A stretch of DNA of 64,000 nt from an uncultured Candidatus Saccharibacteria bacterium (GTDB lineage Bacteria; Patescibacteriota; Saccharimonadia; Saccharimonadales; CAYUUR01), in the NCBI GenBank assembly GCA_964510235.1, contig CAZEBF010000001.1, positions 13,001 through 77,000 of the forward strand. Reading direction: 5' to 3'. Shown here one piece after another: positions 10,246-39,882 of the stretch (positions within the stretch are counted from its first letter, which is position 1; the number at the start of each line of letters is the position of its first letter). The position numbers and the translations under genes were made by a program. The notes under the pieces were generated by a model that searched no databases, was not told the origin of the DNA, and was given only the letters and a program-made list of their open reading frames with translations.

Positions 10246-10320
10246 GCATCTGTTGTTGCGTTCGCTAAACGAACGAATAACAGGGGCAATCATAGCAAGA
10301 TTTTAGTTAAAAAGCAATGA

Positions 10321-10827
10321 TTACTGCGCTGGCACTTCTTGATCGGCAGCAACACTAATGACGTTAACAATCTGGTTGGTGGACGGTCGATAGATAATTA
10401 CTTTGCGCTGTTCCTGGTAAATAAGTAGCTTGTCGCCGTTCTTTACGCCTGCAAAAGCTGGATTGTCAGCAAATCTACTCTCGTCACTTACCTCGGCAGG
10501 AACCGGCTGTTCACCGTTAGGCAAAATCATAATCTTACTCACTTGGCCGACCAAGTCTTTAGACTCCGCTTCGACGGCTTTAACCGGATCGTTAAATCTG
10601 TTGAGTTCAGCACGCGCATCCAAGTACTGCCAAATCAACAAACCAACTGCAACCACAGCAAATACGGCAAGAGCTCGCTTGAGGTTCATCTTGGTAAGTT
10701 TGCTTTTAAGATTTTTGGTTGTTCGTGACGCTTTTTGGTCGCCACTGTTTACTTCGATGTTCATACTTCCCCTGTTACCGTTTAAGTTTATCTTGTTCGA
10801 GCAATTCAAGCAATAAATGCTAGTCAT
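10321..10827 (-). CDS. Hypothetical membrane-anchored protein.
   Basis: 168-aa ORF with a basic N-terminus, a single TM helix (LAVFAVVAVGLLIW) and an extracytoplasmic tail. The start codon is uncertain. Confidence 0.4.
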   Translation of the reverse strand: MTSIYCLNCSNKINLNGNRGSMNIEVNSGDQKASRTTKNLKSKLTKMNLKRALAVFAVVAVGLLIWQYLDARAELNRFNDPVKAVEAESKDLVGQVSKIMILPNGEQPVPAEVSDESRFADNPAFAGVKNGDKLLIYQEQRKVIIYRPSTNQIVNVISVAADQEVPAQ

Positions 10828-10858
10828 TAGGGTAGTGTGTTAGTACAATATTATCTAC

Positions 10859-11803
10859 ATGAGGAAGTTACGAGCGTACCAGATCGCCACGATACTACTC
10901 GCAGTTTTATGCGTAGTGCTGGCTTATCAGGTAATGACAACCAAGGACAAGTTGCCGTCAAAAGCTCAGAGCGAATACCCGCTGCTGGCCAAACGCATCT
11001 TTTTGGATCAACCAAACGACACAATTATCAACTTTTCACCCCTCAGAGAAGACGTCAAAAAGTATTTAGCTGACTCTGGTATTCCGCACAGCTTTTACTT
11101 TGAATACCTGCCAACAGGTACGAGCATTCGTGATGGAGAAGCAAACGAACTGGTCGGAGCCTCACTCATGAAGATACCTATCGTTATGGACCTATACAAA
11201 GCTGCCGAGATGGGCAAAGTCGACCTCGACAAGCAAGTCACCGTGCCTCAAGAAGCCGTCAGTAACGACGGTGTATACGGCAATACCGAGCAGCTCAAGC
11301 CAGGCGATCAGATCACGCTGCGTGAAGCCGCAAAAATTGCCCTTACAGAATCTGACAACACGGCTGCTTACCTTGTCTACGCCGCCACGAAAGACATTAT
11401 AAGCGCCGATGATTCCTCTATTAAACGGCTCGACGTAGAGCTCAATGAGACGACCACGTCGTCGGGAAACTATGTATTAATCGGTGCTCGCTCTTACTCA
11501 TCGTTTTTACAATGTTTGTACTTCAGCTGTCACCTCAGCTTCAACGATTCCCAAGAGATACTTGGCTACTTAACGGAGTCCGAAGACAACAACCGATTAC
11601 GCGCAGGCGTGCCAAGCGACGTCAAAGTAGCACGCAAGATTGGTTCATTTAGCGATCAGACCCAGAGTGACTGCGGTATTGTATATGTGCCGAACCGCCC
11701 GTACACCCTTTGTCTCATGCTTCAAGTCGACGACAAGAACGCCGACAAGCATTTCCAGGTAGTATCAAAGAAGGTCTACGACTACGTTACGACCACCAAC
11801 TAG
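10859..11803 (+). CDS. Class A beta-lactamase-family serine hydrolase, membrane-anchored.
   Basis: It has the SxxK motif (SLMK), the SDN loop (ESDNTAAYL) and a KxG motif (ARKIGSF), after an N-terminal TM helix. Confidence 0.65.
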   Translation: MRKLRAYQIATILLAVLCVVLAYQVMTTKDKLPSKAQSEYPLLAKRIFLDQPNDTIINFSPLREDVKKYLADSGIPHSFYFEYLPTGTSIRDGEANELVGASLMKIPIVMDLYKAAEMGKVDLDKQVTVPQEAVSNDGVYGNTEQLKPGDQITLREAAKIALTESDNTAAYLVYAATKDIISADDSSIKRLDVELNETTTSSGNYVLIGARSYSSFLQCLYFSCHLSFNDSQEILGYLTESEDNNRLRAGVPSDVKVARKIGSFSDQTQSDCGIVYVPNRPYTLCLMLQVDDKNADKHFQVVSKKVYDYVTTTN

Positions 11804-25577: not shown

Positions 25578-26133
25578 GTTCGCGTAAGATCAACGCTATT
25601 TGCTTTACGACTTTGGCGGGATGATGGATATCTTTGATAACCAGGTCACCGATATACGTCTGTATAAGTATTGTACCAAATCTCAGCAGGGTTTCCTGCA
25701 TACCCGAGATTTCGTAGTTGAGTGATTTTATCTGCTGCAAACTGATATCAACGACTGACTTATGGAACAGGCCCTTCTGACTGATCTGGATGAGTCGCTG
25801 GTCAGTCACAATAAATACACTGAAGTACCAGGCAATCCAAGCTGGCGCGAACAGCACAATCATCAGAATGAAACCAGCTGCCAGACCGCCAAAAAAATAG
25901 CTGTACTCTGGTTTAACTAACGCTGGTAAAGTACCGAGTAGCAGACCAAGCATGCCAAAGATCAGCCCTTTACGCATTACCACAGGGTGACGACGAAATA
26001 CTAATAGAACGTCTTCGTCATCAAACTGATCATCGAAGTACTTCTGTTTTTCTGGTTCGGTGTGCGATTTTGCAGCGTTCTTGCCAGCTTTTGCCATAGC
26101 ACTAGCGTAATCGTTTTGACAGGAATAGTCCAC
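25513..26133 (-). CDS. Membrane protein with a bacterial PH-like domain (YdbS/YdbT-like, DUF304).
   Basis: Two TM helices are followed by a PH-like segment (LLVFRRHPVVM...). Confidence 0.35.
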   Translation of the reverse strand: MDYSCQNDYASAMAKAGKNAAKSHTEPEKQKYFDDQFDDEDVLLVFRRHPVVMRKGLIFGMLGLLLGTLPALVKPEYSYFFGGLAAGFILMIVLFAPAWIAWYFSVFIVTDQRLIQISQKGLFHKSVVDISLQQIKSLNYEISGMQETLLRFGTILIQTYIGDLVIKDIHHPAKVVKQIALILREHGVETYLQDDDVQEEDYEEEN

Positions 26134-26155
26134 CCGTTAGAGTAGCCAACTATCT

Positions 26156-26229
26156 GGTACCCCCACTACGATTCGAACGTAGATCTTTTCCTTAGGACGG
26201 AATTGCTCTATCCATTGAGCTATAGGGGC
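26156..26229 (-). tRNA. tRNA-Arg, anticodon CCU.
   Basis: The reverse complement is GCCCCTATAGCTCAATGGATAGAGC...TTCC GTCCTAA GGAA...CTACGTTCGAATCGTAGTGGGGGTACCA. It has a G1-U72 wobble and the CCA end is encoded. Confidence 0.75.
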
Positions 26230-26230
26230 A

Positions 26231-26262
26231 AAACGGCCGCTTTGTCTGCGGCCGATTGTTTT
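26231..26262 (-). terminator. Intrinsic terminator after ndk.
   Basis: cggccgc tttgtct gcggccg, then TTTTGCCCC on the minus strand. Confidence 0.65.
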
Positions 26263-26819
26263 TAGGCGTGTGTTAATTTTTCGTGCACTGTTTCGTACTT
26301 GTACAGTTCGTTATCGTCAAACCACATGCTGATCTCTTGTTTGGCTTCATCAACCGCACCGGAGGCGTGCACCAAGTTAGCTGCACCCTTCTTTTGCAGT
26401 GAAGCACGTCCCAGACTCAAGTGTGCGTAATCACCGCGGATAGTACCAGGAGCGGAATCTTTTGGACCAGTCGAACCAACCATTTTACGAACCACTTCGA
26501 CAGCATGACCACCTTCTAGCACAAAGGCTATTACTGGTGAACTATTCATGAATGAACGAGTAGCGCTAACAATCATTTCACCAATTTCTTCAATCGTTTC
26601 ACTATACTCGACGCCATATCCATCCCAATCAAGCTTTGTCTTGTTGCCGACAATTGGTACTAATTCATCAGGATAGTGTTTTTTAAGCAGTTCCATACCT
26701 GGGATCATCATCTTCATACCAACAATTTTGAATCCAGCGCGTTCAAAGCGAGCGATAATTTCGCCAGCGAGGCCTCGTTGTACTGCGTCTGGCTTGAGAA
26801 TAACTAATGTTCGTTCCAT
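26262..26819 (-). CDS. ndk: Nucleoside diphosphate kinase.
   Basis: LVILKPDAVQRGL and the NDK active-site region (GRASL...NLVHASG) match. The 185-aa length is longer than typical. Confidence 0.8.
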   Translation of the reverse strand: MERTLVILKPDAVQRGLAGEIIARFERAGFKIVGMKMMIPGMELLKKHYPDELVPIVGNKTKLDWDGYGVEYSETIEEIGEMIVSATRSFMNSSPVIAFVLEGGHAVEVVRKMVGSTGPKDSAPGTIRGDYAHLSLGRASLQKKGAANLVHASGAVDEAKQEISMWFDDNELYKYETVHEKLTHA

Positions 26820-26932
26820 GACTTCCCTTCACTTATTTCTTGCTACTAAAAGCACATTCTAACAGATGTGAAGTCGCATAACAAACCAATGCCCAGCGAC
26901 AGCGGCGCAATCGTGTCGTACAATATAAGCAT

Positions 26933-27862
26933 ATGTTGTTTACCAAAGCCAAAACTGATTTTCTGGAGTACCTAGAGATAGAGCAGAACCGCTCACAGAA
27001 AACTATCGCTAATTATGATCACTACCTAACAAGACTAAGTGACTACGCTGGCGACGACATCAAAGTGGCCGATATCGACCCCGAGATGATTCGCAAATGG
27101 CGACTATGGCTGAACCGACTTGGCACCAATACTAGCGACGAGCTACAAAAGACAACTCAGAATTATCACCTAATCGCACTAAGGAGCTTTCTGAAGTTTT
27201 GCTCCAAACGCGACATCCCTGCTCTGTCAGCTGACAAGATTGAGCTAGCGCGCACCGTTCGCAAACAAGTCACATTTCTAAACGCTGACGAAGTACTGAG
27301 ACTCTTCGAACAAACTGACACATCTACACTTGGCGGCCTTCGTGACCGAGCAATTTTGGAATTGCTCTTCTCTAGCGGCTTGCGTGTGTCTGAGCTGGTT
27401 GGCCTCAATCGTGATCATGTAAACCTCAAACGCCGAGAGTTCATGGTGCGCGGTAAAGGACAGAAAGACCGCCCAATATTCATAAGCCCACTGGCGGCTG
27501 AATGGATCCAAAAATACCTTGATGCTCGCCAGGATACTGCACAAGCATTGTTTATCCGCCACGGTAAAGGTGGCGCCAGGACTGTCGACACCAGTGGAAA
27601 CTACAATCGACTGACCGCCCGTAGCATCCAGCGCATGGTGGCCCGCTATGCCCTGCTGGCAGGCATCACTAAGCATGTTTCACCCCATACGTTACGCCAC
27701 AGTTTTGCGACTGATCTGCTGATGAACGGGGCTGATTTACGCTCTGTGCAGGCCTTGTTAGGCCACAGCAACATCGCCACTACCCAGATCTACACCCACG
27801 TAACCGACCCACATCTCAAATCGGTTCACGAAAAGTTTCACCGCCACGGCGACGACGCCTAA
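26933..27862 (+). CDS. Tyrosine site-specific recombinase, XerC/XerD family.
   Basis: It has an N-terminal core-binding domain. The C-terminal catalytic region is HTLRHSFATDLLMNGADLRSVQALLGHSNIATTQIYTHV, which supplies the R..HxxR..Y residues. Confidence 0.8.
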   Translation: MLFTKAKTDFLEYLEIEQNRSQKTIANYDHYLTRLSDYAGDDIKVADIDPEMIRKWRLWLNRLGTNTSDELQKTTQNYHLIALRSFLKFCSKRDIPALSADKIELARTVRKQVTFLNADEVLRLFEQTDTSTLGGLRDRAILELLFSSGLRVSELVGLNRDHVNLKRREFMVRGKGQKDRPIFISPLAAEWIQKYLDARQDTAQALFIRHGKGGARTVDTSGNYNRLTARSIQRMVARYALLAGITKHVSPHTLRHSFATDLLMNGADLRSVQALLGHSNIATTQIYTHVTDPHLKSVHEKFHRHGDDA

Positions 27863-28950
27863 GGGTTACAGGCTGCTTGTTGAGCAGCGCTTTGAGCTGG
27901 CGTAAGAGTGATGTTTGGCTCGTTAGCGCTATTAACATCATTAACCGACTCTCCGGGTAGTGTATAGAATCTTTTACATAGTGTCGTAAAAGTTTGTAGC
28001 GCGTACTCCGGGAAGACTGCACCAGCGTTGGTGAGCGGCACGTTTACTTGAACACGACGCACCACGTCAGCCGCCTTACCAGTCACATCTATCTTAGCCT
28101 GACCATTCTTAAGCTCCTGAACCTGTCCGTCATCAGCGAACGACTGCACCAGTATGCTGGATGGGCTGTAGATGGCTTTAAGCCTAATGTAATACGAGCT
28201 TCGAGTGAGTCCTGTTAAACGCACCTTACAGAAAGGCTCACGAGAGACATTGCAATTACCATTCACAAACAAGCCTTGTTGTCCGGGAGTTGGTGTTACA
28301 GCCGGAACTGGTTGCGAGGTAGTTCCATTACCGGCATTTGGATACAAGAACGCTTGGTACGTATCGGTAATTTGCTGATTACGCGAAGGGACGTCAGGTA
28401 TCAGCATCAGACGTACAACGCCTGTCGTATCGCCCCATCGATTCTCTGGAGTAAGTAAGTGCGTCGGCGACCAAGTAGGGTCTGCAAAACGAGCATCTGT
28501 GGGACGTTGATCTGGCACCTGCCAGTTAATTTCAAGATTACGTACTGGTTGTCCATTAGCAGTCTCGACTTTCATTACCCATGAGGCACCATCAGGGTCA
28601 ATTCTTGTCTGTAATCCGGTCGGCGTGACATCCATAAGTACGCAGGTAAACGATACATTATTGCCTAAGCTTGCTTGATCCATAATTCCAACTTGTGGGG
28701 TATCTTCACAACTGTCAACATCGCTCAGTGTTGCTAGATTGCCATCTATGTAATCACGCGCCACGTTCACACCACTCTCCGCTGCATAAAACGCTTGGGT
28801 GCTCAGCTGTTGATCCAGAGCTTGCCTTTGCTCACGACGCATCAGTGTGGCAAAACCAACGATGATAAGCGTCACGATTCCGAGAATGATAAGCGTAACA
28901 GTGATGGCTGCCAGGCCTGACTCATTACGACGTAAAGTTGTCTGAGACAT
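27859..28950 (-). CDS. Type IV pilus minor pilin/assembly protein, PilX-like.
   Basis: The N-terminus has a TM helix plus the QAFYAAESG motif typical of PilX. It is the last gene of the pilus cluster. Confidence 0.55.
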   Translation of the reverse strand: MSQTTLRRNESGLAAITVTLIILGIVTLIIVGFATLMRREQRQALDQQLSTQAFYAAESGVNVARDYIDGNLATLSDVDSCEDTPQVGIMDQASLGNNVSFTCVLMDVTPTGLQTRIDPDGASWVMKVETANGQPVRNLEINWQVPDQRPTDARFADPTWSPTHLLTPENRWGDTTGVVRLMLIPDVPSRNQQITDTYQAFLYPNAGNGTTSQPVPAVTPTPGQQGLFVNGNCNVSREPFCKVRLTGLTRSSYYIRLKAIYSPSSILVQSFADDGQVQELKNGQAKIDVTGKAADVVRRVQVNVPLTNAGAVFPEYALQTFTTLCKRFYTLPGESVNDVNSANEPNITLTPAQSAAQQAACNP

Positions 28951-29696
28951 TAGTTTGTTCTCCTATAGACTGTTGTTTGTAATTCTGAGGTAGCGCACCA
29001 TTGAGCACCCAAACCAACGCCTGTACAGCGAGCGGTCAAACTGTCACCTGAGCCGCTAAACTCAATCAACTCGTCATCCTGGCCGTACACTACACCAACC
29101 GCAAAACTAGCTAAAGCGTTACTGTCTTGGGGTACTCGTAACCGGTACAAACGCATACCCTCACCTAGCATCTCTCGCCCATTCGAACCCTGCACACCAC
29201 TGGGCAAATCTTCGCGTGGCTCACAAAGTGGACCAGCTTCGTTCTCATCACGCCACATGGCATTTTTGACATAGTTCTCACTGTTGCTACCAGGCTGATA
29301 AAAATTAACGTCTGGGTTCACTTGACCATTAATGATGTAGCTATAACGAACTTTACCGATACAAAAGGCATTAACCTGCACAGGCCCCTGTGCCCCTGGT
29401 ACCGTCCGGGCAGCCCCAACCGATACTTTTTCGGAGGTAAACTGCAGAGTACGACCAATATCATCAGTGATTGTTCTGGTGGTTTCTTGGGTACGAGAAC
29501 TAACGACTCCCTTGTAGTACAGGCGTCCAATCTGCACTAGCATGCTGGCAGCCAGTAATAGTAAAACTGAGAAAACCACAGTAGATATCATCAACTCTAG
29601 GACGGTAAATCCCGACTGGTTTTTGTGCATACTGCTCATTCGTAGCTCCTGTACACCATCTGTAATTGCTCTTTGCCGCCACCAATGCGATCCCAC
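28950..29696 (-). CDS. Type IV minor pilin, PilW-like.
   Basis: The prepilin-like N-terminus GFTVLELMISTVVFSVLLLLAA sits behind a longer leader. Confidence 0.5.
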   Translation of the reverse strand: MGSHWWRQRAITDGVQELRMSSMHKNQSGFTVLELMISTVVFSVLLLLAASMLVQIGRLYYKGVVSSRTQETTRTITDDIGRTLQFTSEKVSVGAARTVPGAQGPVQVNAFCIGKVRYSYIINGQVNPDVNFYQPGSNSENYVKNAMWRDENEAGPLCEPREDLPSGVQGSNGREMLGEGMRLYRLRVPQDSNALASFAVGVVYGQDDELIEFSGSGDSLTARCTGVGLGAQWCATSELQTTVYRRTN

Positions 29697-30085
29697 CGAA
29701 CGTTAATCGTATACGTTGAGCCCTGTTTGACGATGAAGACATTATGAAAGCCGGAGTTTCTGCCGGTACATGCTGCCGGGTACCCAGCAAAAGTGTCAGC
29801 AATATACGAAGCCGGTGGCACGCTAGCAGACCAAGTTACAGCTGCATTAGTGCCAGCCAGACAAAAAGGACTTCCCGCGGTTACGCCAGTAACACCGGCT
29901 TTGATAGTTTCAACTTGGCTCTCGGCTAGCTTGGTGGCTTCGGCCCGCTCTTGCGCCTGCCGACTGTTACGAAGGGCCGCATTCACAATACTATAGGCAC
30001 CACCGATCACCATGCTCAGAACGGCCAGACTAATCAAGACTTCCACGATTGTATCGCCCCTGTTGTTGGATTGTATGCGCATCAT
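29636..30085 (-). CDS. Type IV minor pilin, PilV-like.
   Basis: The N-terminus RGDTIVEVLISLAVLSMVIGG is a class III signal-like segment. Confidence 0.5.
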   Translation of the reverse strand: MMRIQSNNRGDTIVEVLISLAVLSMVIGGAYSIVNAALRNSRQAQERAEATKLAESQVETIKAGVTGVTAGSPFCLAGTNAAVTWSASVPPASYIADTFAGYPAACTGRNSGFHNVFIVKQGSTYTINVRWDRIGGGKEQLQMVYRSYE

Positions 30086-30909
30086 GGATTACACCCCAAT
30101 GGTACTGAATCAACTATCAGCCGTGTGTTGATACCAGATGCTTGCTCAGTGATCTCAAGGGCAGCCTGGCGTGCGTTCGCGTTTGTGTCATTACGGAAAC
30201 AAACCGTCGCAGAAGAGATTCTGTTGCTCTCTCTGATAGCCCCAATAGCCGTGTCAAAGTTGGCAATCGTCTGACCAACAGGGCCAGTTACTCCGTATAA
30301 ACCTGCCGTTTGTGAACCAGCTATTGGATCACCACCGCTGCCAAATGAGCCCAGACTTGTTATAAATGCTATCCCACTGAGAGAGTTATTGGCTTGGTCG
30401 AATACTCGCTTCACCCCTAGCCCATAGCCAAAGGTAAATGGCGTTACATACGGAGAGTTATTAGGAGCGGCGACTGGCTTGGCATCATCCAGACTGTCAA
30501 CATCTGCTCCACCTGCAGTACGATTGCCAGCAATTGTCACAGTACGTGCACCGGTACAATTATTACTACAGCCGGCTTCACTGGGCCCAAACTGAATAGC
30601 TTTGCCCAAGAAAATGCAGTCTTCGTTGGTTCCCTGTTCTTGAGCAGCACCAGCCGCTCTAATCTCTGGTGGCTGGTTGGCAACTGCACTACATCGCCAT
30701 GCGGTTGTTTCTGGAAAAAAGCCACTCGTAACGTCATTGGCAACATCAGTGATACGTGAGTCGGCGTCCCTGGTACCTTGCGTAAATCGGGTACGTTCTT
30801 GCTGGCCATAAAAAGCCGTCACCGCAATAACGAACATGGCGCCGGTCACCGCCAGCACAATCATCGACTCAATAATGGTAAATCCCCCAGCCTGGGCACG
30901 GCGTTTCAT
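30082..30909 (-). CDS. Type IV minor pilin, FimT/PilE-like.
   Basis: The N-terminus is GGFTIIESMIVLAVTGAMFVIAVTAF. Confidence 0.5.
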   Translation of the reverse strand: MKRRAQAGGFTIIESMIVLAVTGAMFVIAVTAFYGQQERTRFTQGTRDADSRITDVANDVTSGFFPETTAWRCSAVANQPPEIRAAGAAQEQGTNEDCIFLGKAIQFGPSEAGCSNNCTGARTVTIAGNRTAGGADVDSLDDAKPVAAPNNSPYVTPFTFGYGLGVKRVFDQANNSLSGIAFITSLGSFGSGGDPIAGSQTAGLYGVTGPVGQTIANFDTAIGAIRESNRISSATVCFRNDTNANARQAALEITEQASGINTRLIVDSVPLGCNP

Positions 30910-30968
30910 ACCCTCAAGTATAGCATAAGCGTTATTGCAGTCGACGCATTTTTACAGATATACACACA

Positions 30969-31799
30969 TTACAAACCAACCAGCGTATTGTACTGATTGA
31001 CGATACGTTCGCCGTACAACGTAACCACAAATGCGGCAGCTATCAGGAAAGGACCAAATGGCAGTTTACTCGTACGTGAAGCCTTGCCCGCTATCATCAA
31101 CGGTAAAGCGACCAGTGTTCCGATAAAAGACGCCAGGAATAGCAGTAGTATCGCGTTCATTGGCCCGCCCACGATGAGCCCGAGGGCTGCACCGAGCTTA
31201 ACGTCACCACCACCTATCCAGCGGCCATCTGATATCTGGAACAACACATAGAAGAGACCGCCACCGATGGCGACGCCCCAAGCAGCAGAGACCAGCGGAT
31301 CAGCATTTCCTGACACAAGAATACTAGCAGCTACATAGAGACCAGCCAATACAGCCAGAGGCGTTACCATTCGGTTGGGCAACAGCATCCACTTGAGATC
31401 ATACACAGCCAGTGCCATCAGACTAACCACAATGCAGAGCCAGAGGCCAAATAACAGCCATACACCGCCTGATACTGGTTCAGGCCACGCCTTGTAGGAA
31501 ATAACGAACAAAACAGCTGTGGCGAGCTCTACAAGCGGATACTGCGCACCAATACGCTTATGACAGTACCTGCACGCCCCTTTCAGCGACAACCAGCTCA
31601 GTACCGGCACTAGATCTTTAGCAGCCAAACCATGCTTGCAGTGCGGACACATAGAACGACCATGTAGCAAAGAGTATTGGTCTGGCTTCTTGTTTGATCG
31701 CTTAGACTTACTGGTGCCCTGCTTATAGATGCGCCACACATAGGCGTTCACAAAACTACCAAAGCACAGGCCGAGAATAAGCAAACTAAGAATAATCAT
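30969..31799 (-). CDS. pilD: Prepilin peptidase (A24 family).
   Basis: It has the Cys pairs CPHC...CRYC in the cytoplasmic loop and multiple TM helices. Confidence 0.8.
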   Translation of the reverse strand: MIILSLLILGLCFGSFVNAYVWRIYKQGTSKSKRSNKKPDQYSLLHGRSMCPHCKHGLAAKDLVPVLSWLSLKGACRYCHKRIGAQYPLVELATAVLFVISYKAWPEPVSGGVWLLFGLWLCIVVSLMALAVYDLKWMLLPNRMVTPLAVLAGLYVAASILVSGNADPLVSAAWGVAIGGGLFYVLFQISDGRWIGGGDVKLGAALGLIVGGPMNAILLLFLASFIGTLVALPLMIAGKASRTSKLPFGPFLIAAAFVVTLYGERIVNQYNTLVGL

Positions 31800-31812
31800 T
31801 TACCCTATCATA

Positions 31813-31842
31813 ACAAAAAACAGCCCGTTGCCGAGCTGTTTT
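31813..31842 (-). terminator. Intrinsic terminator downstream of pilA copy 1.
   Basis: On the minus strand, AACAGCTCGGCAACGGGCTGTT is followed by TTTTTTGTT. Confidence 0.6.
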
Positions 31843-31860
31843 ATTGAATGCTAGGCTATC

Positions 31861-32352
31861 TTAGCCTTCTTGACAGACTTTGTCGCTAGTACCACCAGTT
31901 TCAACTGTGTACATAGCAGCAAATGCTCGTGAAGTAGCGTTGGTTGAAGTTGCATCGTCTCCGTTAGCAGCACACTTTGCACCACGGACTACCACAACTG
32001 TTGACTCAGTAGTGGCGTTGGTGTTAGTTGTTGCTCCGGCTACAAAAGTGACCTGACCAGAATAAATACCGAGCTTGGCATTTGAGAGTGCTGCCGCCTC
32101 TTCATTAGCTGCAGTTACCCCAGTTGGCAACGTAGGCTGACCAGGCAAGCGACCATTATTGTTGTTTGACCATTCCGAGACTGCACCGAGTACGCTCGCT
32201 ACATCATTTTTTCGTTGTGTGTTACGGCTGTTACGCTGCAAGGCTGGTACAGCCAAGAAGACGATTAGCATGATCAGTCCGGCGATTACTAGGACGATCA
32301 AGACTTCGATGATGGTGAAGCCTTTTTCTTGTTGTTTTACTTTTGATAACAT
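31861..32352 (-). CDS. pilA: Type IV major pilin, PilA copy 1.
   Basis: The prepilin leader MLSKVKQQEKG|FTIIEVLIVLVIAGLIMLIVFLAVPAL has class III signal features. The C-terminal region is variable. Confidence 0.8.
   Translation of the reverse strand: MLSKVKQQEKGFTIIEVLIVLVIAGLIMLIVFLAVPALQRNSRNTQRKNDVASVLGAVSEWSNNNNGRLPGQPTLPTGVTAANEEAAALSNAKLGIYSGQVTFVAGATTNTNATTESTVVVVRGAKCAANGDDATSTNATSRAFAAMYTVETGGTSDKVCQEG
32213..32322. repeat. 110-nt perfect direct repeat, copy A. It encodes the conserved N-terminal helix inside pilA copy 1.
   Basis: It is identical base for base to 32818-32927. Confidence 0.9.
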
Positions 32353-32435
32353 TGCTTTATTTCCCCCTTATATGTGCTTAAAGCATAGTGCTTATGTATG
32401 AATGGTAACTGCTCGTTTAGCGAAATGCAACTTTT

Positions 32436-32957
32436 TTATGAGGAGATGCACGTTGCTGTAGCGTTACCACCTGTTTCGACTGCATAGACCACAACTATGC
32501 TGGTGCCGCTCTGAACATCATTGTTAGTGCACTTAGCCTGTCCGAGCATAATTATTAGGCTCTGGTTTGTAGTAATTGTTGTACCAAGAGTACTAGTCGC
32601 TAGATTTCCGGTTTGTCCCGTTGTATTAGCAAGTATATTTAATGCTGAACCACCATATATGCTCAGGCTACCAGCATTAGTTAGAATTGCGGTACGTGTC
32701 GTATCTGGCGCGCCGGAGCATGCAGCCAGTACTGGAAAGCAAGTTGCAGGCCAGGCATTTGCATTATTCGTTCGCCACTCGGAAGCCCCACTTACAATGC
32801 GGCTAGCTTCTGTTCTTCGTTGTGTGTTACGGCTGTTACGCTGCAAGGCTGGTACAGCCAAGAAGACGATTAGCATGATCAGTCCGGCGATTACTAGGAC
32901 GATCAAGACTTCGATGATGGTGAAGCCCTCGGTCTTTTTCTTTAGTTGTGTTTTCAT
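32436..32957 (-). CDS. pilA: Type IV major pilin, PilA copy 2 (paralogue).
   Basis: MKTQLKKKTEG|FTIIEVLIVLVIAG... has the same N-terminal helix as copy 1. The C-terminal domain is divergent. Confidence 0.8.
   Translation of the reverse strand: MKTQLKKKTEGFTIIEVLIVLVIAGLIMLIVFLAVPALQRNSRNTQRRTEASRIVSGASEWRTNNANAWPATCFPVLAACSGAPDTTRTAILTNAGSLSIYGGSALNILANTTGQTGNLATSTLGTTITTNQSLIIMLGQAKCTNNDVQSGTSIVVVYAVETGGNATATCISS
32818..32927. repeat. 110-nt perfect direct repeat, copy B, inside pilA copy 2.
   Basis: It is identical to 32213-32322. The two encode GFTIIEVLIVLVIAGLIMLIVFLAVPALQRNSRNTQR in both genes. Confidence 0.9.
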
Positions 32958-32988
32958 TTAGTGCCCATCCTATTTTTAAACATTAGCT

Positions 32989-34215
32989 TTATACTACAGT
33001 AACCTCGTTGACCAGTCCATAGATTGGCATCAATACTGCCGCCACAATAGTTATGGCCACAATACCGAGCAGAATCATCATTATTGGTTCGATGACCGTA
33101 GAAATAGTCTTAATCTCGTTATCGACTTCTTTCTCATAATAATCTGCTGTTTTACCAAGCATTTGCTCAATTGCACCAGATTGCTCACCGATACGGAGCA
33201 TGTTAGGCACAAGATCCAAGAAGTTATCATTATTTTCTAGTGCTGACGACAACGACTTACCAGCCTTTACCTTCTCGGTAGCTTTAATTAGTGCCGCCTC
33301 AATGTGGACATTATTAATTGATCTACCCGTAATCTGCAATGTTTGCACCAGTGGTACACCACTGGCAACCAGCGTAGTACCCGTTCGGGCAAATCGCGCC
33401 ATATACATCTTCATGAACAGTGGTCCAATTGGCCAAGCCACCATTTTTATTCGGTCGATGACGCGCTTTCCGCCAAAACTACGAGCCCAGCGACTGCCAA
33501 AGAAGATTGCCACAACGAGTATTATGACCACGACATACCAGTACGTCCGTACAAAGCTCGAGAATGAAAGCAAGGCTCGCGTCAGTAACGGCAACGAAGC
33601 ACCGCCCCCGATGCTCGTGTACAATTCTTCTACCTGCGGTAACACCTGGAGCACCATAAAACCTACTACCAAAATCATCACAAACAGCACGATACCCGGA
33701 TATACCATAGCGCCACGGACCTTACTAATAATCTCGGCGTCTTTTTCTTGCTGGTTAGCTAAGCGTTCGAGTGATTTATCGAGCGTACCGGATGCCTCGC
33801 CTGCTGCCACCAGGTTGACGAACACGTTATCAAAAACCATCGGATGGCTGCCGAGTGCAGCAGAGAATGATTGACCAGCCTCAACATCAGCGATTACCTG
33901 GTTAATCACAAGCTTCATATTTTTGTTCTTAGTCTGCTGAGCAATGCTACGCAGCGACTGCACCAAGGGCAGACCAGCGTTAATCAGCGTGGAAAGCTGA
34001 CGCGAGAACAGGATTTTGTCTTTGGTCTTGATGCGCTTTGTAAATCGTCCCAAACCGCCCGAACCAGGACCGCCTGATTTTACCTCGATCTCCAGCACCG
34101 ACAAACCCTGTTGCTGTACCAGTTTAGTAGCAGCAGACTCAGTTTCGGCCTGAACTTCAGCCTTTACTTTTTGGCCTGAGGCTGGGTCGCGTGCGGTGTA
34201 AGAAAAAGTTAACAT
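32989..34215 (-). CDS. pilC: Type IV pilus platform protein PilC (GspF family).
   Basis: It has two T2SS-F domains and three TM segments. Confidence 0.85.
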   Translation of the reverse strand: MLTFSYTARDPASGQKVKAEVQAETESAATKLVQQQGLSVLEIEVKSGGPGSGGLGRFTKRIKTKDKILFSRQLSTLINAGLPLVQSLRSIAQQTKNKNMKLVINQVIADVEAGQSFSAALGSHPMVFDNVFVNLVAAGEASGTLDKSLERLANQQEKDAEIISKVRGAMVYPGIVLFVMILVVGFMVLQVLPQVEELYTSIGGGASLPLLTRALLSFSSFVRTYWYVVVIILVVAIFFGSRWARSFGGKRVIDRIKMVAWPIGPLFMKMYMARFARTGTTLVASGVPLVQTLQITGRSINNVHIEAALIKATEKVKAGKSLSSALENNDNFLDLVPNMLRIGEQSGAIEQMLGKTADYYEKEVDNEIKTISTVIEPIMMILLGIVAITIVAAVLMPIYGLVNEVTVV

Positions 34216-34225
34216 TTATATGTTC

Positions 34226-35302
34226 CTAACCCCTCATCAACCGATCAAGTTCATCGAGATCAATGGCGTAGTTACGTGCCTCATCGTAGGTAATGGTACC
34301 GTTGTGAATCAGCTGAACCAGTGTTTTATCCATTGATTGCATACCGAACTCGGCGCCAGTCTGAATGACTGCCTCGAGCTGGTGACTCTTACCTTCACGG
34401 ATGATATTGCGAACGGCCGGTGTTGCCACCAAAATTTCTGCTGATGCAATTCGTCCACCACCGATAGACGGGATTAGACGCTGTGACACAATGGCCTGCA
34501 AGATGTTCGCCAACTGCGCACGAATTTGTGGCTGTTGGTGTGGTGGAAAAACATCAATCATACGGTCAATACTCTGTGAGGCACTGTTGGTGTGCAGAGT
34601 TGCAAACACCAAGTGACCTGTTTCAGCTATGGTAATAGCCGCAGCAATAGTCTCTAGGTCGCGCATCTCACCAATCAGCACAACGTCAGGGTCTTGGCGC
34701 AAGCTAGAACGCAAAGCGGCTGAGAATGAATAGGTGTCGTAGTGAACTTCGCGCTGAACGATAACTGATTTATTACTCTTGTGAGTAAATTCAATTGGAT
34801 CTTCGATGGTAACAATGTGCTGAGCCCGTTCGGCGTTAATCTTGTGGATCATAGCTGCCAGCGTGGTTGACTTACCAGAACCGGTTGGACCAGTTACCAA
34901 CACCAAACCGCGCGGATAATCAGCAAACTTGTTAACGATTGGTGGAAGACCAAGCTGTTCGATGGTCAAAATCTCGTTCGGGATTAAACGTAAAGCCGCT
35001 GCTAAGTTGCCCCGCTCATGGAAGGCGTTGACACGGAAGCGCCCCAGGTCACCAAAGGCAAAACTGAAGTCAAACTCTTTGTCTTTGAGGAGAATTTGCT
35101 TTTGGTCTTCGTCTAAGATTGCAAAAATAAGTGCTTCAACCGCTTCTTCGGTCAATGCCTCGGTGCCACTGACTGGCAACAGTGAACCATCAACACGCAA
35201 CATCGGTGGCAAGCCCACCTGCAAGTGAAGGTCTGAGCCCTTCTTCTTGATGACTTCTTCTAGTAAGATTTCAATTTTTGGTTGTCCCTGCATACTTCCC
35301 AC
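34226..35302 (-). CDS. pilT: Type IV pilus retraction ATPase PilT.
   Basis: It has the Walker A motif GPTGSGKST, the Asp box, the His box, and the PilT-length (358 aa) layout. Confidence 0.85.
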   Translation of the reverse strand: MGSMQGQPKIEILLEEVIKKKGSDLHLQVGLPPMLRVDGSLLPVSGTEALTEEAVEALIFAILDEDQKQILLKDKEFDFSFAFGDLGRFRVNAFHERGNLAAALRLIPNEILTIEQLGLPPIVNKFADYPRGLVLVTGPTGSGKSTTLAAMIHKINAERAQHIVTIEDPIEFTHKSNKSVIVQREVHYDTYSFSAALRSSLRQDPDVVLIGEMRDLETIAAAITIAETGHLVFATLHTNSASQSIDRMIDVFPPHQQPQIRAQLANILQAIVSQRLIPSIGGGRIASAEILVATPAVRNIIREGKSHQLEAVIQTGAEFGMQSMDKTLVQLIHNGTITYDEARNYAIDLDELDRLMRG

Positions 35303-35305
35303 CTT

Positions 35306-37102
35306 CTATGTATTGTTATCTGAGGCCGCTACGCGGTCAACTTCTGCTAAGCTGGTTTCTCCATCGAGTACTTTGAGATAGCCATCTTCACGCATTGTAA
35401 CCATTCCTTCTGATTGGGCGACCTTTTGAATCTCGGAACTCGGTGCGCGATTGAGGATAAGCTGCTGGATTGCCGGCGATACCTCGAATACTTCGTAGAG
35501 CCCCATTCGTCCCTTATAACCGCCAGGGCTACCGGGACCTTCTTTGCCCTTAGTCAAAGTATAAGCGCTTTGACCCCTCAGAGGCAAGGTCTTATAGCCG
35601 AAATCTTTGGCATACTTGTCCATCTCTTCTTTCTTTTCGGGCAAGAATTTGCCAATTGTAGCATGAATGGCCTCTGTTTCTGGGCCTGTCGACTGATACT
35701 CTTCTTGCTCGGCACCAATTCGACGCACCAAGCGCTGTCCAATCACCGTATGAACGGTGCTGGCGATCAAAAACGGTTCAATACCCATGTCTAATAAACG
35801 TGGCAAGATACCCGCCGCCGAGTTGGTGTGCAGCGTACTGAAGACTAAGTGCCCTGTCAGAGCGGCCTGAACGGCCAATGTCGCCGTCTCTTTATCACGA
35901 ATCTCACCAACCATGATCACGTCAGGATCTTGACGCAAAATTGAGCGCAAACCGCCTGCAAAAGTTAAACCGACGTCAGCATTCACCTGTATTTGGTTAA
36001 TTCCAGGCATCTTATACTCAACTGGGTCTTCCAGCGTGACGATATTGATTGAGTCATTCATAATCTCTTGAATCAAGGCATACATAGATGTCGACTTACC
36101 AGAACCGGTTGGTCCAGAGGTCAGAATCATGCCGTTTGGCCGAGCGGCACCTTTTCTAAGCATACGGAGCGCCCTACCTTTGTAACCCATATCCTCAAGC
36201 TTGAGGCTCGTCCCCGTCTTGTCTAGCAAACGAATAACCACCTGCTCACCCCAAACCACTGGCGATATGGCAATACGTAGGTCAATCTGGTGCTTGTTGA
36301 CCGTCATAGTGAACTGACCATCTTGCGGAATACGGTGTTCATCGATCTTGAGGTTTGCCAAGATTTTGATGCGCGACACAAGTGGCGGTTCAGTGCTTTT
36401 GGGCAATTTCATAATCTCACGCAAAATACCGTCCACTCGACAGCGAATCTTCAGTTCTTTCTCGAGTGGCTCGATATGAATATCACTGGCGCGGTTAGTG
36501 GCAGCATAGTCCAAAATTGCCGTTAGTGCCTTACTAATTGGCGAGTCTTGGACGACTGTTTCGATATTCTGGGCGTCTTTTTTATTCGACTTCTTATCGG
36601 TCTCTTCATCTTCTTCAAGGTGTGTTCCGAGTGCGCCAGCCACCTCTTTATCAATGTTTGAGTTGTCGTATTGGCCTAATACTTGGCGAATACCCTCTTC
36701 ACTGGCTGTGTACACCTTGAGCGGGCGACCAACTTTGTTAGACAAAAAGTCAACAGCCTGCACGTTATCGGCGTCCAGCATGGCGACGACCAGACGATGC
36801 TGCATCTCGCCGAGTGGCACTGCCATGTATTGTTCGGCTGTTTCTTTTGGCAGCAAACTCAGTATCTCAGGATCAATTCGGGCTGTAGCCAGATTCACAT
36901 AAGGCACGTTATTTATCTTGGCGACCATTTTGGTCAGATCTTCATTGCTAATCAGCCCATCGCTAACAAGCTTAGAGAACAATGGTGTTTGCTCTTGTTC
37001 GGCCTTAGTCTTGATATCTGCAAAATCCTTAGCCGAGACGGTACCATCCTTAACTAAGGCTTCTTCGACAAGCTTCTGTGTGGCGGCGGAGAGGACACTC
37101 AC
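35306..37102 (-). CDS. pilB: Type IV pilus assembly ATPase PilB (GspE family).
   Basis: It has an N-terminal GSPII-like domain and the Walker A motif SGPTGSGKST. The 598-aa length is typical. Confidence 0.85.
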   Translation of the reverse strand: MSVLSAATQKLVEEALVKDGTVSAKDFADIKTKAEQEQTPLFSKLVSDGLISNEDLTKMVAKINNVPYVNLATARIDPEILSLLPKETAEQYMAVPLGEMQHRLVVAMLDADNVQAVDFLSNKVGRPLKVYTASEEGIRQVLGQYDNSNIDKEVAGALGTHLEEDEETDKKSNKKDAQNIETVVQDSPISKALTAILDYAATNRASDIHIEPLEKELKIRCRVDGILREIMKLPKSTEPPLVSRIKILANLKIDEHRIPQDGQFTMTVNKHQIDLRIAISPVVWGEQVVIRLLDKTGTSLKLEDMGYKGRALRMLRKGAARPNGMILTSGPTGSGKSTSMYALIQEIMNDSINIVTLEDPVEYKMPGINQIQVNADVGLTFAGGLRSILRQDPDVIMVGEIRDKETATLAVQAALTGHLVFSTLHTNSAAGILPRLLDMGIEPFLIASTVHTVIGQRLVRRIGAEQEEYQSTGPETEAIHATIGKFLPEKKEEMDKYAKDFGYKTLPLRGQSAYTLTKGKEGPGSPGGYKGRMGLYEVFEVSPAIQQLILNRAPSSEIQKVAQSEGMVTMREDGYLKVLDGETSLAEVDRVAASDNNT

Positions 37103-37113
37103 CGTCTTACCCC

Positions 37114-37362
37114 CTAGTTATCTGTCTCAAATGGTGTCGCGTTACCATTGCCACCAATTTCGATGGTCTGCGTTGGGTTAACGGACTTCTCGTTAAAGAA
37201 GCGTGTATCAGGCTGCACAAAGTCAGAGACAATCGGCTCTACTACTTCTACTTGAGCTATTCGCTCACTCGAAGGCACTAGCAAGTAACGCGATGCAAAG
37301 AATGACATAAAGCCACTGACGAATACAATTACCAAGATTAATGCTAAATCTTTCTGTTTCAT
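37114..37362 (-). CDS. Small single-pass membrane protein of the pilus operon (PilP-like position).
   Basis: 82 aa with an N-terminal TM helix, lying between pilO and pilB. Confidence 0.4.
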   Translation of the reverse strand: MKQKDLALILVIVFVSGFMSFFASRYLLVPSSERIAQVEVVEPIVSDFVQPDTRFFNEKSVNPTQTIEIGGNGNATPFETDN

Positions 37363-37363
37363 G

Positions 37364-38119
37364 CTATTTCACCTCCTTAGTGGTGATATTGAGCGTTTTT
37401 TCTGGGAGATAGTAGGTCTTGGCCTCGATCTGCACCTGTAGTTTGGCGTCATCACCGCTGAATGTGATACGGCTAACTGGGAACGGACGAATTGATCGCT
37501 CCATTGATCCAATCAGCCCCTGAATACTCGTGTAAGTGCCAGAGGCACCAATCTGGAATGGAATTTCTACTGGATCCTTTTGACCCACGGCAGTAAGTTG
37601 GTTGACTTCATCATCGGTACCGCTAATGTTTTCGATGGTGTAATTGCCGCTCGTAAGTACTTTCTCCAGACTCGATGCGAGTGCTGGGAAGTCGTATTTG
37701 CTTGGCAAGGCGTCGAGCACAATCTTGGCGTTATCACCATCTCTGTCACCCTTGCCTGCCGGATCACCACCAATCACGTTCTCGGCCGTGCCCGTAAAAG
37801 CTTGGTAGGACGTAACGAGGGTGTCAACTGCTGCTACGTTGGCTTCGAGTTGGTTACGAGCGACCTCTTTTTCTGTGATAACACGCGCCTGGAAACTACG
37901 CTGATCCCACAAAGCCTTGGCCGCTACCAGTGAGAACATAGTTATGAACGAGGCTACCGCCACAACAACAACCATTGTCGTGTTGGCTTTGGTTATCTGG
38001 GTTCGCTTGCCTGAAGGCCGCGTTGATTGTTGTGCTTCTGCCATGTTAGTTGCCTCCTTGTTCGAACAGCGCAGCTGGCTTTTCGGTCTGTGAACGAGTT
38101 GTAACAGTCTTTGGTACAA
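37364..38119 (-). CDS. pilO: PilO-like pilus biogenesis protein.
   Basis: It has a TM helix plus a coiled-coil and a periplasmic domain. The likely true start is MAEAQQ at about 38044, which abuts the pilN stop. Confidence 0.55.
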   Translation of the reverse strand: MYQRLLQLVHRPKSQLRCSNKEATNMAEAQQSTRPSGKRTQITKANTTMVVVVAVASFITMFSLVAAKALWDQRSFQARVITEKEVARNQLEANVAAVDTLVTSYQAFTGTAENVIGGDPAGKGDRDGDNAKIVLDALPSKYDFPALASSLEKVLTSGNYTIENISGTDDEVNQLTAVGQKDPVEIPFQIGASGTYTSIQGLIGSMERSIRPFPVSRITFSGDDAKLQVQIEAKTYYLPEKTLNITTKEVK

Positions 38120-38711
38120 TCAGCTCAACTTTTTGTGCATTGTTGAAGATTGTTGGATCAAACTTGCCAGATATCTGATAAGTTGTGCTTTTTTCGTCAC
38201 GTGAGAAACTCGTCAATACTACCTCTGGAAATGCCTTCTTAGCTTCGGCGCCTTCAACAGTATATGTTGTAAACTTGAGCGTATCGACAAATGTATTAAC
38301 GTCTTGAATGTCGGGAGCGCTACCTGTAAAAATAAGCGTGCCGTTTGCAACATCTAGGTCAAGCTGCGAGATGCTAACGTTGTTCGGAACAACCTGCTTA
38401 AGATAACCAAATAATCGAGTCGTTTCAGCTTTTTGGCCATGCAAACCAGGCAGTGCGTTAAGCTGATTCTGAATTGTTAGAACTTTATTGAGATCAGGTG
38501 TGCTCTGTAACGTTTGGCTGTTTGCGGCGATATCTTCAGTCAAGTTACTAATGTGCTGCTTCTGTAGTATGTTGACGACTACAAATAGAATAATGAGCAG
38601 ACCTAGGCTGATAGTCGCTACACCACTAGCAATCAATGTAACCATACGCTTAGTACGCTTAGTCTTGATGTAATCAAGCTTGATGTCTGGGAGCAGGTTG
38701 AGTTGAATCAT
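38046..38711 (-). CDS. pilN: PilN-like pilus biogenesis protein.
   Basis: It has the N-terminal IQLNLLP motif and a single TM helix. Confidence 0.65.
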   Translation of the reverse strand: MIQLNLLPDIKLDYIKTKRTKRMVTLIASGVATISLGLLIILFVVVNILQKQHISNLTEDIAANSQTLQSTPDLNKVLTIQNQLNALPGLHGQKAETTRLFGYLKQVVPNNVSISQLDLDVANGTLIFTGSAPDIQDVNTFVDTLKFTTYTVEGAEAKKAFPEVVLTSFSRDEKSTTYQISGKFDPTIFNNAQKVELIVPKTVTTRSQTEKPAALFEQGGN

Positions 38712-39820
38712 TATTCGCTCCTCTCCGCCAAGCCTACTGCTACGCCAAAGCTATTAGATACAGCCAGTAATTCATTCTGTTGAGACTGAGCAAATGATAC
38801 GTTCCGCCAAGAGTTACCAATTTCTACACTCAAACCAAACTTGTTAGCAATGTGCAGCGGGAACTCTGGCAGTGATGAAGCGCCACCAGTAACGACAACG
38901 CGCTCGAGCTTGGCATCAACATATCGGGTCTGGAAGAACTTAATAGATTTTTCTATCTCAGCAGTGAGGATTTCTACCGTTCCGATGATAGCGTTATAAA
39001 TCTGCCCCTCAAGTTTGTCTTTACTGAGACCAAACTTAAACACAAACTGCTGAGCTTGCTTCTCGTCGATACTGAGATTTTGCATTGCTGCACGGATGAT
39101 TGCTTCTGAGCCAGTTGGGATTGAACGAGTCAAACGTGGCGCTCCGCCAGTGGTAATAACAAGGTCGGTGTTCTTAGAACCGATGTCGAGCACCATCTGA
39201 GCACCAGCAGAATCAGGTGCAGTTAGTGCGCGAGTTATTGCCAAGTTATCTGGTTCAAATGCAATGACATTGAGGCCAATTGACTCAAGCATGTCGAGTC
39301 GGTTTTCGATAAAGTCGTTTGGTACGCTAGAAAGCAGAATCTCGACCTTTGTCTTATCCTTCGGTGAATCACCCAGTAGCGCCCAGTCAATCTTAGAATC
39401 AGACAGTGGCGTCGGAATAAGTGAATCGGCCTGGAAACGAATGGTTTTAGCTAACTCATCGGGGCTGAGACGATCAATGTCTACAACTGTTGTGAACACT
39501 TTGGCTGATGGAATACCAACGGCAACGTTTTTGGTCGAAACTCGGGCTTCGCCAATCAACTCTTTGACAACCTGGACTAACTTTTGCTGATCAACCTTAG
39601 AATCACTCATGGCAATCTTGCTATCAACGGGTACGTAGGCGTATTTGACCAGTGTCTTGACTGGACCGCTACCGCTCAACTGCACTAAACGAATAGCAGA
39701 GGTGCCGATATCGAGGCCAAAGAAGTCAGACACGCCCGAAATAATACTCACGATTGTCCCCTTATTGCTGTCTGTGTTTGCTGTATATTCATGTGTTTCT
39801 CTGATTCCCGCTTGGCCCAC
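38711..39820 (-). CDS. pilM: PilM, actin-like pilus assembly ATPase.
   Basis: It has the phosphate-1 motif GLDIGTSAIRLV and an FtsA/actin-like fold pattern. Confidence 0.75.
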   Translation of the reverse strand: MGQAGIRETHEYTANTDSNKGTIVSIISGVSDFFGLDIGTSAIRLVQLSGSGPVKTLVKYAYVPVDSKIAMSDSKVDQQKLVQVVKELIGEARVSTKNVAVGIPSAKVFTTVVDIDRLSPDELAKTIRFQADSLIPTPLSDSKIDWALLGDSPKDKTKVEILLSSVPNDFIENRLDMLESIGLNVIAFEPDNLAITRALTAPDSAGAQMVLDIGSKNTDLVITTGGAPRLTRSIPTGSEAIIRAAMQNLSIDEKQAQQFVFKFGLSKDKLEGQIYNAIIGTVEILTAEIEKSIKFFQTRYVDAKLERVVVTGGASSLPEFPLHIANKFGLSVEIGNSWRNVSFAQSQQNELLAVSNSFGVAVGLAERSE

Positions 39821-39882
39821 CCTAAGGCAAAACGGAGATCGCTTACTCCAAATTATAGCATAAGCGCAATGGCGAGCAACCC

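Follow-up and report, generated by a model that had tools for sequence, protein, structure and literature searches.

Gene conversion between old tandem type IV pilin paralogues in an uncultured soil Saccharibacterium

Introduction

How does a stretch of perfectly identical nucleotides come to lie in two neighbouring genes that differ over most of their remaining length? The question is raised by two adjacent type IV pilin genes on contig CAZEBF010000001.1 of an uncultured Candidatus Saccharibacteria bacterium (order Saccharimonadales; assembly GCA_964510235.1), of which the 64,000 nucleotides (nt) from position 13,001 to 77,000, hereafter called the window, were analysed. Type IV pili (T4P) serve Saccharibacteria in host attachment, motility and probably DNA uptake (PMC11623550, PMC9894109). 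A first-pass annotation, made from the letters of the window alone, had noticed the repeat, ascribed it to recent gene conversion between two major pilin genes, and suggested that it might serve antigenic or receptor-specificity variation. The comparative analysis presented here supports the conversion and speaks against such variation within the species. The best explanation overall, in which we have considerable confidence, is that the two genes are old, retained tandem T4P pilin paralogues whose N-terminal segments were recently homogenised, with the downstream gene (beta) probably encoding the major pilin and the upstream gene (alpha) an accessory one.

A perfect repeat in two tandem pilin genes

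Both genes lie on the minus strand, pilin gene 1 ('alpha' type, 173 amino acids (aa)) at window positions 32436..32957 and pilin gene 2 ('beta' type, 163 aa) at 31861..32352. They are exactly identical over 112 nt (32816-32927 in gene 1, 32211-32322 in gene 2, both on the minus strand), and the two copies are in direct orientation, 605 nt apart from start to start; the repeat is as perfect as first annotated, and slightly longer than the 110 nt then reported. It corresponds to codons 11-47 of both open reading frames (ORFs) and encodes GFTIIEVLIVLVIAGLIMLIVFLAVPALQRNSRNTQR, beginning with the GGC codon of the cleavage-site glycine, G(-1), covering mature residues 1-36 (the alpha1-N helix), and ending in CAA CGA plus one base, past mature Arg36. 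A 44-mer taken from the repeat and searched with up to three mismatches gave two matches in the window as against none in 100 dinucleotide shuffles, and neither this search nor a motif scan detected a third copy within the window.

Motif, gene context and predicted fold identify both genes as type IV pilin genes. The Pfam N_methyl family (PF07963, cutoff 21.2 bits) is matched by alpha with 28.3 bits and by beta with 31.3 bits, and the prepilin leaders and cleavage sites read MKTQLKKKTE-G/FTIIE in gene 1 and MLSKVKQQEK-G/FTIIE in gene 2. Both leaders are lysine-rich and 10 residues long, and are identical at 16/30 nt. In an alignment of 65 homologues, G11, F12, T13 and E16 (Glu+5) are invariant, as are two C-terminal cysteines. 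AlphaFold2 predicts the lollipop fold for both proteins, with a helix from residue 14 to 64 followed by a small beta-sheet (mean predicted local distance difference test score 84.6 for alpha and 87.4 for beta). When a profile of the pilin family was compared with PDB sequences, the best match was PilE1 of Streptococcus sanguinis (8pfb_G, E=1.8e-4), and gonococcal and meningococcal PilE and geopilin were also matched.

The two pilins are related beyond the repeat. As whole proteins they align by BLASTP with E=4e-35 and 42% identity, and their C-terminal parts are ~29% identical and have in common the cysteine pair and a Y-x-V-E-T-G-G motif. The C-terminal domains, which had at first been taken to be unrelated, are on this evidence divergent homologues.

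The arrangement is also found in independent data. Two assemblies from Joint Genome Institute (JGI) samples, L081 and L082 (3300056999 and 3300056789), contain the same pair of 173-aa and 163-aa pilins, whose genes are again identical over 112 nt. Further support comes from a Logan contig of 1003 nt (L168), which begins 7 nt beyond the gene-1 repeat and differs from the window at a single position. It covers the C-terminal part of gene 1, the spacer and the whole of gene 2 with its leader and repeat copy; because L168 spans it, the second copy sits in unique flanks in independent data. The break 7 nt past the gene-1 repeat is what is expected of short-read assemblers at true repeats. Across four samples of the species the pilin pair is nearly invariant, with one substitution in total. 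An assembly artefact is ruled out by these three independent assemblies, and the collapse that the first-pass annotation had named as the way in which its reading could fail is contradicted by the two further full-length assemblies and the short contig.

Evidence for gene conversion

The duplication itself is old. In three related loci (L083, L084 and L001) the gene order is likewise pilC, gene 1 (alpha), gene 2 (beta), pilD. PilC homologues assign the bacterium to Saccharimonadales (Saccharibacteria/TM7), and its closest relatives have a PilC 85-86% identical to that of the window; the gene-1 protein is 83% (L083), 70% (L084) and 60% (L001) identical. Nucleotide identity in the C-terminal domains is 59-78% among alpha orthologues and 54-77% among beta orthologues, as against ~42% between the paralogues in every genome. 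Because the C-terminal domains group by position in this way, the alpha/beta duplication predates these species. The paralogous C-terminal domains are saturated at synonymous sites (proportion of synonymous differences, pS, 0.81), whereas between the window and L083 the ratio of nonsynonymous to synonymous substitution (dN/dS) is 0.08 for alpha and 0.09 for beta, at a synonymous divergence (dS) of ~1.2-1.3. These values point to strong purifying selection on both C-terminal domains and to an old duplication of which both copies have been retained. A recent tandem duplication is ruled out by the alpha and beta orthologues in the relatives.

The N-terminal segment behaves differently. Its 37 codons specify the same peptide in all genes examined, except for one substitution in gene 1 of L001, and yet the codons used by the two paralogues differ widely among lineages: synonymous differences number 0/36 in the window, 6/36 in L084, 9/36 in L002, 11/36 in L083 and 19/35 in L001, which amounts to 17-54% of synonymous codons in the relatives, with corresponding dS values (Nei-Gojobori) of 0, 0.24, 0.40, 0.60 and 2.4. 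At the pooled rate of the relatives (45/143 codons), the chance of finding 0/36 differences is ~1e-6. For comparison, in pilC 0.51-0.60 of synonymous codons differ between these species. The segment carries no orthology signal, all cross-comparisons being 78-95% identical, and the paralogues of the window are each other's closest sequence in this segment, while their C-terminal domains group by orthologue. The tract is therefore phylogenetically incongruent with its flanks, its dS lies far below both that of the saturated flanks and that of the same tract in sister lineages (0.24-2.4), and the pair had arisen before the lineage with the identical tract. This comparative sequence evidence identifies the 112-nt identity as the product of recent non-allelic gene conversion, as the first-pass annotation had proposed, and not of recent duplication or nucleotide constraint. 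Constraint at the nucleotide level cannot explain the identity because the relatives use many different codons for the same peptide.

The absence of differences at ~29 synonymous sites bounds the event at a dS of roughly <0.1. The conversion is thus recent relative to the split from L083 and older than the divergence of the sampled strains, all of which carry it. The identity stops exactly at the point where amino-acid similarity stops, as would be expected if the available homology set the limits of the tract. The mechanism that we infer is RecA-type non-allelic gene conversion, restricted to the sole stretch in which protein constraint would preserve enough nucleotide similarity for heteroduplex formation and recurring episodically; the spread of paralogue dS among the five lineages is as episodic homogenisation, or concerted evolution, predicts. 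The direction was probably from beta to alpha, because the leader type of gene 1 in the window is otherwise found only on beta or canonical genes: the leader MKTQLKKKTE resembles that of L001 gene 2 (26/30 nt) and those of canonical single pilins, and the gene-1 leaders of L083, L084, L001 and L002 are of another type.

A survey of Saccharimonadales covering 166 loci (160 distinct places) places the pair in a wider setting. Two pilin genes follow pilC in 40/166 loci. Older pairs with diverged N-termini (21-29/37 residues identical) occur at 28 distinct loci, and same-stem pairs occur in three lineages, namely the window's clade, L003 and L080. The L003 pair shows 2/37 synonymous differences and exact matches of 107-146 nt, and the L080 pair 2/35 differences, while the pair of L131, which is similar to that of L080, differs at 16/34 synonymous codons.

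The older extra pilin lies between pilC and the canonical pilin (in L017-L021, L026, L030-L034, L044, L046, L049, L052 and others), has its own diverged N-terminal helix (e.g., GFTIVETMIVLAVAGIILMIVLLAIPALERGSRN) and no separate promoter-like element, and constitutes a distinct subfamily. The possibility that alpha is an orthologue of this older pilin with an overwritten N-terminus was considered and is contradicted by profile scores, since the alpha C-terminus scores 37.8 bits against the canonical-pilin profile and 20.3 bits against the old-first-pilin profile. Against the C-terminal profile of canonical Saccharimonadales pilins, beta scores 71 bits and alpha 38. Because of its better fit to the canonical profile, alpha is regarded as a clade-specific duplicate of the canonical gene.

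A scan based on PilC recovered one additional close relative, L086 (PilC 86% identical). Its single, beta-like pilin gene (positions 2587-3081) is preceded by the canonical 5' untranslated region (5'UTR), and its leader falls between the two types seen in the tandem clade. Either L086 preserves the original one-pilin condition, or alpha was lost from it later.

Exchange of pilin cassettes between lineages

Different lineages combine leaders, N-terminal segments and C-terminal domains in different ways, as the comparison of L001 with L002 illustrates. Against a background of ~88% identity, two blocks are exactly identical. The first (L001 7117-7309) takes in the end of pilC, the spacer and leader 1 and stops 21 nt into N-terminal segment 1; the second (L001 7899-9095) opens with the first base of N-terminal segment 2 and reaches into pilD. 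What separates them is the remainder of segment 1, C-terminal domains that are unrelated (alpha in L001 and a third type, gamma, in L002), the spacer and differing leaders. In this one species pair, the sequences show an exchanged unit, consisting of C-terminal domain 1, spacer and leader 2, that is bounded by the two N-terminal segments, which thus also function as homology arms. We take the 100% blocks to reflect recent recombination between lineages in the pilus cluster, chimeric joining during assembly of the metagenome-assembled genomes being less likely. Such exchange is plausible because Saccharibacteria are naturally competent (PMC10187176). Additional L001/L002 blocks of 100% identity lie at L001 ~4500-5100 and 9475-9875.

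The first-pass annotation had regarded the repeat as a recombination substrate through which C-terminal domains might be swapped. As far as exchange between lineages is concerned, the L001/L002 cassette bears this out; as a source of variation within the species it finds no support, for reasons given below.

Promoter-like element and probable roles of alpha and beta

The two pilin genes are separated by a spacer of 83 nt (32353..32435, minus strand) that is conserved in the window, L083, L084, L001 and L002. On the minus strand it contains a promoter-like element whose putative function is that of a promoter, consisting of TTGCAT (32430-32425), a 17-nt gap and TACCAT (32407-32402), followed by a CATAAGCA box (32396-32389), a small palindrome (32393-32381) and the Shine-Dalgarno sequence of beta, AAGGGGGA (32369-32362). 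The order-wide consensus reads TTGnnnT, ~17 nt, TAnnnT, a CATAAG box and an AAGGGGG Shine-Dalgarno sequence, and this motif was found upstream of 124/152 canonical Saccharimonadales pilin genes as compared with 9/760 random 125-mers. The same 5'UTR precedes the single beta-like pilin of L086. With 3/6 consensus positions in its -35 hexamer, the spacer element escaped a generic sigma-70 scan and was recognised by conservation alone. The element marks the canonical member of a tandem pair, which is gene 2 in the window's clade and gene 1 in L080 and L131.

Alpha starts 31 nt past pilC and has a Shine-Dalgarno sequence, AGGATGGG, that is weaker than that of beta, and it lacks the pilin promoter-like element. 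A terminator-like hairpin (31817..31842, minus strand; 11 pairs with a T tail, fold -19 kcal/mol) follows gene 2 only. Because beta has its own order-wide promoter-like element and a strong Shine-Dalgarno sequence, we infer that it is the canonical, strongly expressed major pilin. Alpha would then be an accessory pilin that is co-transcribed with pilC by read-through, and its identical stem would let it use the same PilD/PilC/PilB machinery and probably join the same filament. The earlier description of two major pilins is therefore retained as to their being type IV pilins, while their equivalence as major pilins is doubtful, given that the promoter-like element stands before the downstream gene only.

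Alternative explanations

The explanation that survives best beside gene conversion between retained paralogues is that the repeat is a programmed or high-frequency device for variation, in which recombination between its copies deletes or amplifies the cassette or swaps C-terminal domains among members of a population, varying antigenicity or host-receptor specificity. Perfect 112-nt direct repeats 605 nt apart are a competent RecA substrate, the cassette has been exchanged across species (alpha in L001 as against gamma in L002), L086 has one beta-like pilin, and the pilin genes are mosaic among lineages in leader, N-terminal segment and C-terminal domain. We nevertheless consider this explanation unlikely. 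The same two-gene arrangement is present in the four independent samples with the single substitution mentioned above, both C-terminal domains are under the strong purifying selection described (dN/dS 0.08-0.09), and their orthologues are kept in three other lineages. A deletion would join leader 1 to the beta C-terminus and lose the promoter-like element of beta, and no silent cassettes, inverted repeats or dedicated recombinase were found at the locus. The strains differ instead at PilX and the minor pilins: between the window and L081, identity is 99-100% from pilM through the pilins but falls to 92-94% in pilD and to 85-90% in the minor pilins. These observations speak against the antigenic or receptor variation that had first been suggested for the pair.

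Purifying selection acting on the nucleotides themselves, without recombination, could in principle preserve the segment as an mRNA or translation element, as a target of a small RNA, or through codon optimisation for a highly expressed hydrophobic helix. Between species, 0.22-0.45 of the synonymous codons of the segment differ, fewer than in pilC, and the peptide is invariant. In the relatives, nonetheless, the codons for this peptide differ at 6-19 positions between paralogues (L084, L002, L083, L001) and at 8-16 between species, which implies that no unique nucleotide sequence is needed, and the boundary of the identity coincides exactly with that of amino-acid similarity. This explanation is already largely refuted by the codon differences of the relatives, and we judge it very unlikely.

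We regard it as equally improbable that natural transformation brought in DNA of another strain, which then overwrote one or both N-terminal segments. In favour of this, blocks of 100% identity form a mosaic at the locus, both between ~88% identical lineages and between strains, Saccharibacteria are competent, and the resemblance of the gene-1 leader to the gene-2 leader of L001 suggests an outside source. Two independent imports of the same 112 nt are, however, less parsimonious than one intragenomic conversion, and no donor with the exact sequence was found outside the species, identity in the segment reaching at most 95% in the closest relatives; metagenome contigs scanned with a degenerate 56-nt version of the repeat gave 0 matches. 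Least credible of all is that the genes duplicated in tandem only recently and their leaders and C-terminal domains then diverged very fast, or that the repeat is an assembly artefact; this explanation has nothing in its favour beyond the identity itself and is opposed by the orthologues in L083, L084 and L001, the paralogue C-terminal pS of ~0.8 and the three further independent assemblies.

It should be noted that several points weigh against the reading of old paralogues with a recently converted N-terminal segment, or against parts of it. Because the divergence of the segment between species lies below the pilC baseline, some codon-level constraint or frequent exchange between lineages must also act on it. 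As to the probable direction of conversion, the differing leaders require at least two events or an exogenous donor. Promoter function, the relative abundance of the two pilins and the co-assembly of alpha and beta are predictions from sequence. The L001/L002 blocks come from metagenome-assembled genomes, in which chimeric assembly is possible. Finally, a Foldseek search of the full alpha and beta models against the PDB gave no significant match, the top one being the gonococcal pilus 5vxx (E=0.37).

Comparison with known systems

The S. sanguinis pilus, a heteropolymeric T4P built from the tandem major pilins PilE1 and PilE2 (PMC6497953, PMC10628169; PDB 8pfb), resembles the system described here in its monoderm-type T4P cluster and in its two adjacent pilin genes with a common alpha1-N stem, and PilE1 is the best PDB match of the family. 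There the co-assembly of two pilins via the common stem is an established mechanism, whereas here it is suggested by analogy. Further differences are that the globular domains of alpha and beta are ~29% identical, that their upstream signals differ, and that only one gene has a promoter-like element; the feature of interest in the window, as opposed to S. sanguinis, is the nucleotide-perfect homogenisation of the N-terminal segment alone.

In the tandem lpl paralogue cluster of Staphylococcus aureus, a conserved segment inside each ORF is a site of homologous recombination (Tsuru & Kobayashi 2008, PMC2568036). The exchange of a unit bounded by conserved segments between L001 and L002 follows the same pattern, here in a single species pair and not in many strains. 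The lpl genes belong to another protein family, and unlike them the pilins are present in two copies only, with the conserved segment near the 5' end instead of in a central position. By analogy, the heteropolymeric pilus of S. sanguinis is the closest functional model of the pair and the lpl-type cluster the closest evolutionary one.

Programmed systems of pilin variation are less similar. Neisseria draws on silent pilS donors that lack a promoter and are truncated at the 5' end, and it is the variable C-terminal region of the pilin that is converted, at a high programmed frequency. The pair described here has in common with Neisseria pilE/pilS (e.g., PMC12871193, PMC4023411) a conversion between paralogues with a constant N-terminus and differing C-termini. 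In contrast to that system, both copies in the window are complete (start codon, leader and Shine-Dalgarno sequence), it is the constant N-terminus that was converted, and no population variation was seen. Neither silent truncated donors nor C-terminal conversion was found, and the window contains no further copies. The Q/I inversion of Moraxella (Piv) and the shufflon of R64 (Rci) both switch the C-terminal domain of a pilin while the N-terminal coding segment before it stays constant. These systems rely on inverted repeats and a dedicated site-specific recombinase, whereas the repeats described here are direct and the sole nearby recombinase is XerC/D-like. A shufflon or inversion acting on the pilins, or on PilX beside this tyrosine recombinase, was considered and rejected, since no inverted repeats were found (none of >=25 nt in window 26000-40000), and no dedicated recombinase of this kind was found either.

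Within the phylum, Nanosynbacter lyticus TM7x encodes two systems, T4P-1 and T4P-2, in separate loci with one PilA per system (PMC11623550). Like the window, it has small lollipop major pilins and clustered genes for assembly proteins, PilA and V/W/X-type minor pilins, and by gene content alone the window cluster resembles TM7x locus one (T4P-1). Tandem same-stem pilin pairs are not described in the TM7x paper, in which the word 'tandem' has 0 occurrences (PMC11623550), and a literature search yielded no account of tandem same-stem pilins or of pilin gene conversion in Saccharibacteria.

The surrounding pilus gene cluster

The T4P cluster with the tandem pilins is the single complete one in this Saccharimonadales bacterium. 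Its genes, all on the minus strand, follow the order pilM, pilN-like, pilO-like, pilB, pilT, pilC, the two pilins, pilD and minor pilins. The first of them, pilM (38711-39820), matches Pfam PilM_2. It is followed by the pilN-like (38046-38711) and pilO-like (37364-38119) genes, whose GspL_C, PilN and PilO-type Pfam matches fall here below the curated cutoffs. The pair of pilB-like (35306-37102) and pilT-like (34226-35302) ATPase genes matches T2SSE and MshEN. Directly upstream of pilin gene 1 lies pilC (32989..34215), encoding the T2SSF platform protein (Pfam T2SSF, E=5e-59), and directly downstream of the pilins lies pilD (30969..31799), encoding the A24 prepilin peptidase (A24_N_bact and Peptidase_A24).

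Beyond pilD, a minor pilin operon (27859..30909, minus strand) was recognised by N_methyl and PilX_N matches and a motif scan. It consists of three small genes (30082-30909, 29636-30085 and 28950-29696) and, as its last gene, a PilX_N-type minor pilin gene (27859-28950). Most of this PilX-like gene is ~50% identical between the window (27818-28757) and L081 (~10200-11140). By sequence comparison, the strain-variable part of the locus is this PilX-like minor pilin, a putative tip pilin, and not the pilin pair. The XerC/D-like tyrosine recombinase gene (26933-27862, plus strand) is convergent with the PilX-like gene and abuts it, lies ~4 kb from the pilins, and keeps its position in relatives.

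An extended -10-like motif, CGCTTATGCTATA (minus strand), is present at 30909-30938 and 39844-39873, where it immediately precedes the minor-pilin operon and pilM, and a similar CGCTTATG(C/G)TATACT sequence stands ahead of the minor-pilin genes in many related loci; motifs of the CGCTTATGCTATA type may represent a common pil-operon promoter. Directly upstream of pilM is an 834-aa ORF (39883-42387, minus strand) that has no Pfam match. Elsewhere in the window, a 2841-aa ORF (11804-20329, minus strand) has as its sole Pfam match a Laminin_G_3 / concanavalin A-like lectin domain at residues ~2029-2177 and is a candidate giant surface adhesin of the episymbiont.

Implications for pilus evolution in Saccharibacteria

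We would like to stress that the case is one of real and fairly ordinary gene conversion between old duplicates and reveals no new mechanism; as an example from the tandem pilin paralogues of an uncultured soil Saccharibacterium, it is solid and well controlled. It shows that some environmental lineages retain two pilins with identical stems and divergent heads, that the stem region of the pilins evolves in concert, and that the pilin locus is a recombination mosaic. For annotation, it suggests the practical rule that the canonical major pilin can be recognised by the conserved promoter-like element and 5'UTR upstream of its gene.

A further possibility, which we put forward as speculative and think rather unlikely, is that the invariant alpha1-N segment, in combination with natural competence, acts as a portable homology arm for cassettes (globular domain, promoter and next leader) that travel between species, and that conversion is selected to keep the stem of the accessory pilin identical for a heteropolymeric pilus with two surfaces. 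If this were true, such a pilus would be a way for episymbionts to tune their binding to the host bacterium. Apart from this possibility, the stem-identical pairs offer concrete candidates for heteropolymeric pili in Patescibacteria, together with a natural marker of homologous recombination in uncultured episymbionts.

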